Shown here piece by piece: positions 13,633 to 16,465 of a DNA stretch of 19,655 bases. The notes below the pieces were generated by a model. That model did not search any database. It was given only the letters and a program-made list of their open reading frames with translations, and was not told where the DNA came from. The DNA lies in the IMG/VR virus record IMGVR_UViG_3300029577_000167, positions 1 through 19,655 of that record; one strand, 5' to 3'. Position 1 is the stretch's first letter. Each line of letters starts with the position of its first letter. Source of the DNA: a virus (Duplodnaviria; Heunggongvirae; Uroviricota; Caudoviricetes). Position numbers and translations under genes: made by a program.

Positions 13633-13677
13633 CTGAGAAGAGGGCCAGAAACGGCCCTTTCTCTATAGCCACCAGCT

Positions 13678-13818
13678 GCCGCAGGGAAATTTTCAGAAAC
13701 GGCGAGGAACGCATTCATGAGCCGACGGGAAACGGCCAAGATTTTTTCGGGAAACGGCGGGGGTCGCCTTTATGTAGAAAACTGAGCGGGAGAAACCCGG
13801 AATCGCGCCAGAAATTGC
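13678..13818 (+). repeat. second cluster of GGGAAACGG-type repeats, about 22-bp period
   Basis: GCCGCAGGGAAATTTTC 13678, CAGAAACGGCG 13694, CGACGGGAAACGGCC 13723, TTCGGGAAACGGCGG 13747, GCGGGAGAAACCCGG 13785, CGCCAGAAATTGCG 13805. Confidence 0.6.
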
Positions 13819-14231
13819 GTAGCGGCGCTGGGGTAGCGCTGGTGGGGGTTTCAGCCCCTGGGCCATCCAGATAGCTTTCGCTATGTGATTATGTGAATCC
13901 GTGGGTAAATCACTGTAAGCGCGTACACGTTGCCCAACGTGGCAATCATATGCGAGCGGATACAAAACAACACAAAGAGCCGATCCGCGCCGACAAATAA
14001 ACGCGGATCACATAGCAAGACTAAAAGCCAATGATTAACCATACTCTATAGCGCAATATAACGCGTTTTAAGCGCGTTAATGTGTTAAGTAATGTGTATG
14101 TACTAACAAGGATATAAAAGCGCGTCTATGGCGTTATTTTGGTGCTTATTTTTATGTTGTTGGAGCGAGTTAAAGACAATAAAAAACGCGCTAATGATGG
14201 CGCGTTATGGTGGGAGTATTGGAAACGAAAA

Positions 14232-14250
14232 AAGCGCCCATAGTGGGCGC
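14232..14250 (-). terminator. 19-bp perfect palindrome AGCGCCCATAGTGGGCGCT, terminator for gene 14257-14487
   Basis: Flanked by AAAAAA on the plus strand (a U-run on the minus-strand transcript); identical copy at 14507-14525. Confidence 0.6.
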
Positions 14251-14256
14251 TCGATT

Positions 14257-14487
14257 TTATTTGTGTAAACTAATTTTGAATCCCATTTCTACAAACGCTT
14301 TTAACATTAAAAATATATCAGCGTCATTCACGTCTGCTTTTTTTCGCTCCTGGTCGTTCAATAAGTCAATTTTGCGCGTTGTTTCATTTATAAACTCGAC
14401 TGCGCGCCCAGCGATCCCAGCGATCCCAGCGATGCGATTAACATAATATTCATTATGGACGTTAACGCCAGCGATAAGAACAAACAT
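14257..14487 (-). CDS. hypothetical small protein (76 aa) containing IAG-IAG-IAG from a 9-bp tandem repeat
   Basis: AAGGAG RBS 8 nt upstream on the minus strand; low-GC region. Confidence 0.5.
   Translation of the reverse strand: MFVLIAGVNVHNEYYVNRIAGIAGIAGRAVEFINETTRKIDLLNDQERKKADVNDADIFLMLKAFVEMGFKISLHK
14407..14433. repeat. perfect 3x tandem repeat of CCCAGCGAT (in frame inside ORF 14257-14487)
   Basis: Units at 14407-14415, 14416-14424, 14425-14433. Confidence 0.9.
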
Positions 14488-14506
14488 GATTAAGCTCCTT
14501 AAAACT

Positions 14507-14525
14507 AGCGCCCATAGTGGGCGCT
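14507..14525 (-). terminator. second copy of 19-bp palindrome AGCGCCCATAGTGGGCGCT, terminator for gene 14538-15188
   Basis: Identical to 14232-14250; lies 13 bp past the stop of the 216-aa gene. Confidence 0.55.
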
Positions 14526-14537
14526 ATATCCATCTAA

Positions 14538-15188
14538 TTACGCTTTGAAAGCATCAGCCAGATAGTTATAAAAATCATTTTTAACGAAGCGATATTGCTG
14601 TGATCCGTTTTTCGCTGCACCCATTCCTTTGATTTTTTCGACCAGTCCCAGACGTTCGCAAAGATTGATAAGCTGGTTGGCTTGAGTGTATCCTGCGTCT
14701 AATTTTATTTCGTTGGCTTTTTTCGCTTCATTCATTAAATCGAAAACAGCGCCATTGGTGAACGTGTCGATCTCGTCGTTAATCATATCGATTAAAGCGA
14801 ATACACGAGATCCGGACATATCAGCGACGGAATAAACACACTTTCCAGCTTTAATAGATTTAACCAGATAAACCAGTTTTTCGAGTGAATAGCTATTGGT
14901 CATAGCTTCACGGAAAAACGCTTCAGGTGCTTGTTTACTTGCTTTAATCGCGTAGTAAAAGATACCAGCTAATTTCTCATCATTAACAGCGTTTAAAACG
15001 TTGTTGGTGAAGTATGCTAGTTTGGTAGACGCTGCAAGCATGTTAGCTTTATCCGCTTTTGTGTGTGTACCATTTTTATAATGATTGTTATAAGTCTGAG
15101 TAGCGTTGTTGGCTGCAACTTGTAACTCATTAGCGATAACCACAGCAGCGTCGATAATGGATTTTTTAGAAATGGTAACGTTAGACAT
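14538..15188 (-). CDS. hypothetical protein (216 aa) in AT-rich acquired segment
   Basis: AAGGA RBS 8 nt upstream on the minus strand; N/K/A-rich composition distinct from neighbours; no motif recognised. Confidence 0.6.
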   Translation of the reverse strand: MSNVTISKKSIIDAAVVIANELQVAANNATQTYNNHYKNGTHTKADKANMLAASTKLAYFTNNVLNAVNDEKLAGIFYYAIKASKQAPEAFFREAMTNSYSLEKLVYLVKSIKAGKCVYSVADMSGSRVFALIDMINDEIDTFTNGAVFDLMNEAKKANEIKLDAGYTQANQLINLCERLGLVEKIKGMGAAKNGSQQYRFVKNDFYNYLADAFKA

Positions 15189-15461
15189 GATGTTAATCCT
15201 TATGTAATATTGATAACTTAATTTGTTGTTTGTTTATCGTTAGCGTGTTCGCTTTCGATGTGACTAATTATCGATATACAGAAATTAAAATCAAGAGTTT
15301 TTTATGCGGGAACGAAAAAATTTTTCTCCAATAAAAATCAAAATCTTAGAAATAAAACGCGTTTTCTCGAAGGTGTTGCCTAAATAAATTCTCTATTCAG
15401 CCAATCACCCTTATATATTTAAATTGGAATCGAGTTTGTGGGAAATAAATATAACGGGAAG

Positions 15462-15498
15462 TGACGAATAAAATAATAACCGGACTTAGCCGGTTATT
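15462..15498 (-). terminator. intrinsic terminator of the helicase-side operon
   Basis: AATAACCGG-acttag-CCGGTTATT hairpin (15475-15498) followed on the minus strand by a U-rich tract. Confidence 0.6.
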
Positions 15499-15510
15499 AC
15501 CCTTATAGAT

Positions 15511-16038
15511 TTAAAACGGTAAAATCCGTTCGACCCAATCGAACATGGCGACTGTCTTCCTACCGTCCCCCATGTTGAGTGTGACCTGACAAGCGTCAAC
15601 GCCTGAAGACACCCCCTCAATTTCACGGCCATCCGCCATGTAGACCCTTATAGACTTCTGCATCTCATGGGCCTGGCGACAAATTTTGAAGAAATCACGG
15701 CGAGATGGCCGATTGTCCACATAGTCTGGGTGTATCGTTGTCCGACCCGTGAAGTCGTGTGCAATGCCTTCTGTCACACCTGATTCAATCGTGCTGATTC
15801 GCTCAAGTGGGAGCCTTATACGATTATCTTTGTCGAACGGGGCAGGGCAAAGGTCGACCTTGTTGCGTGACGACATGAGACCCTGAACATACATGCAGAA
15901 CACCTGACCATCTTCCATCGTGACCCTTACAGGAATAAGAGACTTGCGCCAGAACATCAGCGCTTTCTCCACGTTGGTGTAATCGCGCGGCCAGACTTCT
16001 GCAGGAATCCCGTAGGTGATGTCAGTAATATTCGTCAT
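15511..16038 (-). CDS. hypothetical protein (175 aa) with internal duplication of an RVxMxDG module
   Basis: Start ATG at 16038 lies 2 nt after the upstream stop (ORF track extends to 16080). PVRVTMEDGQVF...LERISTIE and SIRVYMADGREI...FDWVERI look like tandem copies. Confidence 0.5.
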   Translation of the reverse strand: MTNITDITYGIPAEVWPRDYTNVEKALMFWRKSLIPVRVTMEDGQVFCMYVQGLMSSRNKVDLCPAPFDKDNRIRLPLERISTIESGVTEGIAHDFTGRTTIHPDYVDNRPSRRDFFKICRQAHEMQKSIRVYMADGREIEGVSSGVDACQVTLNMGDGRKTVAMFDWVERILPF

Positions 16039-16042
16039 ATCG

Positions 16043-16465
16043 TCACAGTGTCGTTGGTAAGATATCGATGTCACCAGCATTACTGGTGAACACCCGGAAG
16101 ACTTTCGTCTCGCCAGCTTTGGTAATCGTCTCGCGTTCCTGACGAGCAGGATTCAGTGCGCACAGCCCAGCGTCTTCGAGTGAGGCGCCAACAATCCATT
16201 CTCCGGCATCCAGATGAAAAGTGACTTTTTCACCTGTTTCCAGTTTTGCAACGGTTTCGCCATTGATGAAGATCGATGCGTCGCAACCGGCGCCCACCAT
16301 GCTTTTATCTCTCATAACCACCAGCGTCGATGCCGCCGGAGATTGGTATTTGAATATTCTGGTCTGCGGTGCTGGCTTTGCCTCAGAGACAGGAATAGGA
16401 CGAGATTGACATGCAGTGATAAGTAACGCGGAGGCAGCAACCAGAGGAAGTAATACGTGTTTCAT
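16043..16465 (-). CDS. predicted lipoprotein (140 aa)
   Basis: MKHVLLPLVAASALLITAC: signal peptide with lipobox LITAC; ORF track start at 16501 is upstream of the likely Met. Confidence 0.6.
   Translation of the reverse strand: MKHVLLPLVAASALLITACQSRPIPVSEAKPAPQTRIFKYQSPAASTLVVMRDKSMVGAGCDASIFINGETVAKLETGEKVTFHLDAGEWIVGASLEDAGLCALNPARQERETITKAGETKVFRVFTSNAGDIDILPTTL

Follow-up and report, generated by a model that had tools for sequence, protein, structure and literature searches.

Conserved boundary (linker) sequences are said, from the work of Botstein, Hendrix and Juhala/Clark, to lie between the modules of lambdoid phages, whose genomes reportedly also grow by the accretion of morons. 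Intercistronic stem-loops and repetitive extragenic palindromic (REP) hairpins, for example that of malE-malF, stabilize the mRNA upstream of them. The attC sites of integron gene cassettes are 57 to 141 nt long, carry R''/L'' and L'/R' core sites and belong to systems with an adjacent IntI integrase and attI. A further kind of repeated hairpin, the promoter-early stem-loop (PeSL), has been described in T4-type phages (Arbiol et al. 2010, PMC2839356; Comeau et al. 2014, PMC4122927), with excised mini-circles among its features. We analyzed a stretch of 19,655 nucleotides from a tailed phage (IMG/VR record IMGVR_UViG_3300029577_000167; hereafter the window), in which two adjacent minus-strand genes, encoding proteins of 216 and 76 amino acids (aa), are each followed by a copy of the same hairpin. 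We consider it likely that the segment holding them, 14000-15510, is a self-contained AT-rich transcription unit in the conserved backbone of SSU5/pHCM2-type phage-plasmids, that the distal hairpin is its terminator, and that the hairpin copies are junctions for the exchange of small genes.

The repeated hairpin bounds a variable small-gene slot

The hairpin AGCGCCCATAGTGGGCGCT occurs exactly twice in the window, at 14233-14251 and 14507-14525, in the same orientation. None of 200 shuffles gave a match even when 3 mismatches were allowed, and no third site was found in the window within that limit. Two complementary, GC-rich arms of 8 nt enclose a nonpalindromic center of 3 nt. Hence, the first-pass annotation, which had reported an identical 19-bp perfect palindrome after each gene, was right that the copies are identical; the hairpin is no strict palindrome, however, and the distal copy had been placed one nucleotide off, at 14232-14250. 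The sequence shared between the copies extends over only 19 to 24 nt. The proximal copy (H1) lies 12 nt and the distal copy (H2) 5 nt past the stop codon of the gene before it, the 216-aa and the 76-aa gene, respectively.

A slot with variable content separates H1 from a terminal copy, which bears the run TTTTTTCGTTTC. We gathered relatives by protein similarity, which yielded 77 loci from IMG/VR, 5 from genomes and several metagenome contigs (individual loci bear L numbers), and counted slot architectures over about 90 protein-ascertained loci. The hairpin (H) stood alone in 10 to 11 loci. A single gene between two hairpins was the 67-aa gene in 29 loci, the 76-aa gene in 20, and a 47%-identical paralog of the 76-aa gene in 4; in 5 more loci a divergent 67-aa gene was followed by one or two hairpins (H, gene, H or H-H). 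Two genes occupied the slot as H, 67-aa gene, 76-aa gene, H (16 loci), as H, 67-aa gene, paralog of the 76-aa gene, H (3 loci), or as H, paralog, H, 76-aa gene, H (2 loci). The 76-aa gene is therefore absent from some relatives, replaced by the 67-aa gene in others and duplicated in yet others. All slot genes belong to just two families, phrog_6145 (67 aa) and phrog_1585 (75 to 76 aa), and the ribosome-binding-site motif TTTAAGGAGCTTAATC precedes each of them. Since several architectures were found within each identity class of the 216-aa protein, the content of the slot changes repeatedly.

Pairwise comparisons located the points of change. Identity between the window and L010 was 88 to 100% from 16100 to 14501, about 40% between the hairpins and 92% in the 50-nt bin containing H2, a clean replacement of the DNA between two hairpins; it was about 60% over 14200-13951 and then high again. 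L005 differs from the window almost solely in that last interval (14200-13951). In L054, identity to the window was incongruent, at 83% for the 216-aa gene, 95% for the 76-aa gene and 98% for the downstream region. Together, the incongruent identities and the breakpoints point to at least three independently exchanged modules, with the hairpin copies as junctions.

Gain and loss of whole units were also evident. L011 corresponds to L010 less 247 bp, exactly one hairpin-to-hairpin unit, and the flanks of the two are about 95% identical. Two paralogous 75/76-aa genes (about 47% protein identity) are present in both L046 and L060, and the same hairpin follows each of them. These cases bear out an earlier suggestion that a unit of gene plus terminator had been duplicated. 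In a subfamily at 48% protein identity (L219-L226), all eight protein-ascertained loci end in 3 to 4 tandem H-like terminators; in L219 and L220, 2 to 3 of these 44-bp terminator units are exact copies, and the remainder are H-like variants in stages of decay.

How might such a locus work? Transcription would start in a conserved control region with a sigma-70 promoter and proceed through the 216-aa gene, H1, the small-gene slot and H2 with its U-run toward more hairpins. Because the hairpin copies are identical direct repeats (19 to 24 nt), they would, along with the shared ribosome-binding-site motif, serve as junctions for homologous or slippage-type recombination, and the slot holds zero, one or two small genes. 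Paralogs would be duplicated together with their own hairpin, a cassette would be lost from hairpin to hairpin, and the modules to the left and right of the slot would recombine independently. Observed directly were the anatomy and conservation of the locus, its mosaic breakpoints, a single exact deletion and the confinement of the hairpin to this site. We infer that the hairpins promote exchange rather than merely tolerating it.

Table 1. Positions of the features of the segment, in window coordinates.
Feature	Positions	Strand	Description
Conserved upstream control region	15300..15515	-	20-nt direct repeat and blocks ATTTATTTAGGCAACACCTTCGA and TTTATTTCTAAGA
Terminator hairpin of FljA-like gene	15474..15499	-	TAATAACCGG / CCGGTTATTA, 6-nt loop, then TTTTATT on minus strand; read from sequence
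Sigma-70-type promoter	15267..15294	-	Promoter scan: TTGATT, 16-nt spacer, GATAAT; A-run before
216-aa gene, phrog_1513	14538..15188	-	Open reading frame; AAGGA 8 nt before ATG
Proximal hairpin H1	14507..14525	-	Between the two genes; then AGUUUUAAGGAG; left edge of small-gene slot
76-aa gene, phrog_1585	14257..14487	-	Slot occupant in the window; AAGGAG 8 nt before ATG
Distal hairpin H2 and U-run	14221..14251	-	H2 14233-14251, then UUUUUUCGUUUC; right edge of slot
Further hairpins	13981..14206	-	T2 14185-14206, 14118-14135, 14060-14078, 13981-14010

The two hairpin copies differ in predicted role

Both hairpins follow a stop codon closely, as the stem-loop of an intrinsic terminator does, and both have a stem of 8 to 9 bp with 6 GC pairs (-13.6 kcal/mol). 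H2 passed a minus-strand terminator scan (9 pairs, 6 of them GC) and folds at -15.5 kcal/mol in its context. H1 failed the same scan: it has no full U-run but instead the sequence AGUUUUAAGGAG, which runs directly into the next gene's ribosome-binding site. Because that ribosome-binding site takes the place of the U-run, transcripts should read through H1. A promoter scan found no promoter-like site at or near either hairpin or between the genes, its sole minus-strand match being at 15294-15267, and so the small gene must be read through H1. Judged by these sequence features, H2 would be the Rho-independent terminator of the operon, backed up by T2, whereas H1 is most likely an intercistronic attenuator and/or a 3' stabilizer of the upstream message.

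Is the hairpin conserved beyond what its surroundings would predict? Loci L080-L198 had been found with the hairpin as query; they were left out of this test, which was redone on protein-found loci only. In SSU5-type relatives down to 62% protein identity, the hairpin always lies 8 to 13 nt after the 216-aa gene. Stems were exact in 150 of 163 hairpin instances from 86 dereplicated loci, and the synonymous divergence (dS) of the adjacent gene was 0.43 to 1.07. We conclude that the stem is conserved far more strongly than neutral evolution would predict. Selection on pairing, together with homogenization by the recombination that moves the cassettes, can account for this. Relatives at 33 to 42% identity have unrelated, ordinary terminators at the position of the hairpin. 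A search of the whole window against Rfam at E<=1 returned only chance-level matches, none of them inside the segment.

The loops of these hairpins were polymorphic. Among L003-L079, the loop CTA (67 and 59 loci at the two hairpin sites) was swapped for its exact reverse complement, TAG, in 8 loci at each site. Such flips were also seen within groups whose 216-aa genes are at least 99% identical. The loop of T2 (14185-14206) behaved alike: TTGT in 21 loci versus ACAA in 7, ATGA in 9 versus TCAT in 7, and TTGA in 3 versus TCAA in 1. The flips look like recurrent template-switch inversion at perfect inverted repeats.

Beyond H2 lies a run of further hairpins. The first-pass annotation had listed AACGCGC...GCGCGTT hairpins at 14059-14080 and 14184-14207. 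The latter held up: T2 (AACGCGC/GCGCGTT) is followed by a T-run on the minus strand and makes a second terminator-like site. The former proved weaker, the hairpin at 14060-14078 having a 6-bp stem, a 7-nt loop and no T-run. The noncoding region after the operon, roughly 13950-14210, has two or more versions, about 55 to 68% identical to one another. It is exchanged independently of both flanks: in L005, L010 and L036 the version differs, with flanks that are still 90 to 100% identical. It holds 3 to 4 hairpins with related stems (AACGCGC... / AAGCGCG...), and in L011 the 10-nt unit TTTTAGCGCG stands three times in tandem within it. This region may possibly act as a small RNA or cis-acting site.

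The 216-aa gene opens an independent unit under a conserved control region

The gene upstream of the 216-aa gene encodes an FljA-like protein (15511-16080, minus strand; PF03614, repressor of phase-1 flagellin, E=1.9e-95). Its terminator hairpin (Table 1) is kept in 9 of 10 aligned relatives. The output of the consensus terminator scan does not include it. Since the FljA-like gene has a terminator hairpin of its own, the 216-aa gene opens an independent unit. The copies of the 20-nt direct repeat in the control region, at 15404-15423 and 15496-15515, lie 92 bp apart and read TTTAAAT[AC]TATAAGGGT[GA]AT on the minus strand; one of them overlaps the stop codon of the FljA-like gene. The blocks of the control region are nearly invariant among relatives down to 62% protein identity, and the roughly 200 bp upstream of the promoter are far better conserved than the coding sequence. 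The repeat and the blocks are probably binding sites for a regulator protein. After the promoter comes a conserved leader, CATCGAAAGCGAACACGCTAACGATA; leader and both promoter hexamers were present in all 10 aligned relatives.

The FljA-like gene adjoins the 216-aa gene down to 35% identity (L211-L213), and L213 has two tandem copies of it. Salmonella FljA acts on an mRNA leader. It is conceivable that the FljA-like protein may likewise act on the conserved leader of the 216-aa mRNA.

Both minus-strand genes called in the first-pass annotation are present, with good ribosome-binding sites. The ratio of nonsynonymous to synonymous substitution (dN/dS) was 0.05 to 0.12 for the 216-aa gene and 0.13 to 0.26 for the 76-aa gene; such low ratios indicate purifying selection, and we conclude that both are real coding genes. 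Neither protein found a match in Pfam, NCBIfam, PADLOC or a PDB sequence search. The 216-aa family comprises 21 representative clusters among 1.84 billion proteins. Its AlphaFold2 (AF2) model is confident, with a predicted local distance difference test (pLDDT) score of 90.8, and has long helices at 8-114 and a helix plus beta-hairpin domain at about 125-213. In Foldseek searches of PDB and BFVD, matches fell solely in the C-terminal, predicted winged-helix part, with E>=0.02. The best of these, all weak (template modeling scores of 0.5 to 0.6 relative to the target, E of 0.03 to 0.3), were winged-helix domains, namely those of the replication terminator protein RTP (1f4k), a chain of the MukBEF complex (7nyw_D), Orc/Cdc6, PadR and TubR. 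Sequence-profile searches gave no match for the protein. The earlier remark that it has no recognizable motif stands at the level of sequence families. The 216-aa protein is an orphan; on the model, it probably combines a helical N-terminal domain with a C-terminal winged helix and is probably a dimeric DNA-binding protein.

The small slot proteins are less well defined. The AF2 model of the 76-aa protein is poor (pLDDT 62.7). Inside its gene, a 9-bp tandem repeat at 14402-14433 (GCGATCCCA, plus strand) codes for IAG repeats, and these vary from 1 to 4 copies among relatives, giving proteins of 70, 73, 76 or 79 aa. The 67-aa slot gene is named "MIT family metal ion transporter CorA" in SSU5 (L002, SSU5_119), and PHROGs inherits that name for phrog_6145. 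Its product looks like a soluble helical peptide and gave no match to CorA in Pfam, and the label of CorA or metal ion transporter looks unsupported.

Expression values are available for homologs on Cyrano in E. coli LF82. In lysogeny broth (LB), log2 values for CYRAN_113 (216 aa) and CYRAN_112 (76 aa) are 2.3 to 2.8, which is the detection floor, and after 6 h in macrophages CYRAN_113 reaches 5.5 to 5.7 and CYRAN_112 reaches 4.4 to 4.9 (PMC9928086 S1 Table). Neither gene is on the moron list of the LF82 paper (PMC9928086). Within one strain and few conditions, then, the LF82 homologs lack the expression from a prophage that marks a moron. Because the unit sits at the floor in LB despite its good promoter, it appears to be repressed in the plasmid state, and repression of this kind fits the elaborate conserved control region. 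We conclude that the 216-aa unit is no classical lysogen-expressed moron.

The segment belongs to the backbone of SSU5/pHCM2-type phage-plasmids

Matching the segment and its flanks to database genomes placed the window in a phage-plasmid of the SSU5/pHCM2 type. Salmonella phage SSU5, Escherichia phage Cyrano and related Klebsiella phages matched segment plus flanks at 83 to 91%. Among complete E. coli genomes, the nearest record was plasmid NZ_CP122497.1 (107,494 bp, 99.3%), and the segment was found on 241 plasmids and on no chromosome; its flanks were found on 238 and 213 plasmids. Genes annotated next to the segment encode an FljA-like regulator, a lipoprotein, a DEAD-box helicase and ParB-like proteins.

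The 216-aa protein had homologs on contigs of about 100 to 115 kb that came from Escherichia, Salmonella, Citrobacter, Enterobacter, Klebsiella, Cronobacter, Serratia, Yersinia pestis, Kluyvera and Buttiauxella. Relatives with 42% and with 35% protein identity retained the gene order ParB_N, helicase, FljA-like gene, 216-aa gene; at 33%, the helicase and the 216-aa gene were still linked, and no FljA-like gene was recognized. In every relative recovered, the 216-aa gene sat at the same position, and so the patchy presence that marks a moron is lacking. A broad query of the SSU5/pHCM2 literature found nothing specific to the 216-aa locus.

Some observations concern the surroundings and the database records. 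A transposase of the ISKpn26 family (IS5) is encoded at L001 2959-3939 (NZ_CP122497.1 99923-100903), among small plus-strand genes upstream of the segment. A 29.6-kb contig assigned to a "Bacillota bacterium" metagenome-assembled genome (MAG), L199 (JAEWTL010000044.1), carries a 99% identical copy of the 216-aa gene, and protein P0092 of a "Finegoldia magna" MAG also matches the 216-aa protein. Both matches are probably binning contamination.

Alternative readings of the locus

The first-pass annotation had noticed a drop in guanine-plus-cytosine (GC) content at about 14.0-15.5 kb, and computation confirmed it: GC was 0.374 for 14000-15510 versus 0.471 for the window and 0.486 for NZ_CP122497.1. 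The truly AT-rich core is 14257-15510 (0.368), in which the 216-aa gene has 0.389, the 76-aa gene 0.385 and the upstream intergenic region 15189-15510 0.304; GC is 0.401 in 14000-14256 and 0.486 in the entire downstream intergenic region, 13633-14256. Is this AT-rich block a recently acquired piece of accessory cargo, perhaps a defense or anti-defense gene, as the same annotation had proposed? The segment is the lowest-GC 1,511-bp stretch of the window, and just 0.6% of same-size stretches in the nearest plasmid are equally low, where other such troughs are true cargo (a fimbrial operon, a type I hsdS gene and an insertion sequence/helix-turn-helix region). The unit is also moron-like in form, with its own promoter and terminator, and its 216-aa protein is an orphan without family assignment. 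Against these points, the segment is as frequent among E. coli plasmids as its flanks are, the 216-aa unit is spread over many enterobacterial genera from Escherichia to Buttiauxella, and synteny persists down to 35 to 42% identity. Moreover, the 216-aa gene lies 4 to 13 GC points under its own locus in 6 of 7 divergent relatives measured; in the seventh, L216, gene and locus have equal GC (0.327 versus 0.332). Because low GC is kept in these six, we conclude that AT-richness is mostly an old, maintained property of the gene rather than a trace of recent transfer. As for defense or anti-defense, we found no evidence: there were no matches in PADLOC, Pfam or NCBIfam, and the unit is silent in LF82 lysogens in LB. 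Recent acquisition of cargo is hence very improbable.

Our preferred reading, of a backbone unit whose hairpins terminate transcription and serve as exchange junctions, has points against it as well. Terminator and attenuator activity are predicted from the sequence, and the roughly 2-fold excess of the upstream over the downstream gene in LF82 (PMC9928086 S1 Table, per-gene values), a point in favor of this reading, is small and near the detection floor. Conserved elements between variable modules resemble breakpoints whether or not they promote recombination. In L227, a relative at 52%, the intercistronic hairpin differs from the terminal one; hence, identity of the two copies is not obligatory. 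Finally, a stem sequence that is near invariant across 48 to 100% protein identity exceeds the strict need of a terminator and would fit a sequence-specific binding site too. Could the invariant 8-bp arms be a duplex palindromic site (two half-sites 3 bp apart) that a dimeric protein recognizes, such as the adjacent winged-helix protein or a recombinase, with the copies marking a protein-controlled boundary or exchange site? A dimer operator would be expected to have arms this constant around a varying center (CTA, TAG, ATA, TTA, TTG, TCA, TAA, CAA); the arms are kept despite a dS of 0.8 to 1.07 in the adjacent gene, and in the 48%-identity subfamily, and the hairpin is always linked to the gene for a protein modeled as winged helix. 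But the distal copy always has a U-run at terminator distance, its place is taken by unrelated ordinary terminators in the relatives at 33 to 42% identity, and T2, too, combines a conserved stem with a loop that is free to vary. Neither the promoter region of the unit nor the rest of the window has a copy or a half-site-like match within 3 mismatches, and most center variants are exact inversions, which argues for hairpin or cruciform mechanics rather than for a lack of protein contact. On balance, we think a dimer site unlikely. It is more doubtful still that the arms are a sequence-specific site, as duplex or extruded hairpin, for a phage-plasmid protein (most plausibly the 216-aa protein), so that the locus would be a mini-integron-like device for cassette exchange or boundary marking without an integrase and the loop flips a by-product of protein-induced extrusion. 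Least credible, to the point of near dismissal, is a small mobile or self-propagating repeat, similar to REP, to miniature inverted-repeat transposable elements (MITEs) or to integron attC sites, that inserts beside genes. Several identical copies do exist, including the 2 to 3 exact tandem 44-bp units without genes between them, as do units resembling cassettes, each with a ribosome-binding site, a small gene and a hairpin. Yet the 107-kb NZ_CP122497.1 has only two copies, both at this locus, and a collection-wide pattern search found the stem elsewhere in viral contigs only as single copies in unrelated flanks, which are ordinary terminators of other phages; the mobile hairpin element or dispersed palindrome once envisaged was thus searched for and did not appear. 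The repeat is 19 nt long and has no attC core sites, the sole tyrosine recombinase annotated in the retrieved part of the plasmid annotation is some 50 kb off, the 76-aa family is confined to contigs of SSU5 size, and slippage explains the tandem copies.

Comparison with known systems

The backbone unit shares with the linkers of lambdoid phages the use of short conserved gene-boundary sequences as crossover points, from which mosaic genomes result. Like morons, the 216-aa unit is equipped with a promoter and a terminator of its own and deviates in base composition. It differs from them in being backbone rather than facultative, only the small downstream genes being facultative, and in that its LF82 homolog is silent in the lysogen. 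H1 resembles hairpins of the malE-malF type: it is GC-rich, has no U-run and stands between two cistrons of one transcript, and by analogy it would be expected to shield the message before it and to reduce expression of the gene after it. Unlike the malE-malF/REP hairpins, it stands outside any dispersed repeat family. A REP- or MITE-type dispersed repeat was ruled out, there being no dispersal (two copies, one locus). So was an integron gene cassette or attC site: the repeat is 19 to 24 nt with a perfect 8-bp stem, it has no GTTRRRY-type core, and the nearest tyrosine recombinase is about 50 kb away.

The loop flips have a counterpart in the hairpin-loop inversions by template switching of Mönttinen and Löytynoja (2022, PMC8794818). 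In both, the loop becomes its reverse complement (here CTA to TAG, TTGT to ACAA) while the stems stay intact, and here both states occur in near-identical genomes. Those inversions are rare events in the evolution of rRNA or miRNA, whereas ours lie in DNA terminators and are a frequent polymorphism of a plasmid population, in about 10% of copies per H site and 25 to 45% at T2. High-frequency inversion of terminator loops could offer a natural way of reading out template switching.

What does the locus add? It is a new local variant of known phage mosaicism and not a newly acquired defense island. It offers a small, clean example of how temperate phage-plasmids, which bear resistance and virulence genes in Enterobacteriaceae, reshuffle small genes, in which one repeated terminator hairpin would be both transcriptional punctuation and crossover point. 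Across the entire SSU5/pHCM2 group, the 216-aa gene is a conserved, tightly controlled orphan paired with an FljA-like regulator. Current concepts are unchanged; the annotation of a medically common plasmid family is refined.

The closest analogue is the PeSL motif of T4-type phages. In both cases, short conserved intergenic stem-loops act, or here would act, as terminators or attenuators, and they are placed just before the ribosome-binding site of small genes without known function. In both, too, the motif bounds insertions, deletions and replacements between relatives. The repeated unit described here differs in having no sigma-70 promoter within it, in its number (1 to 4 copies at one locus, versus about 50 PeSL over hyperplastic regions) and in its host element, a temperate siphovirus phage-plasmid. 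The locus shuffles as PeSL do but is no member of that class.

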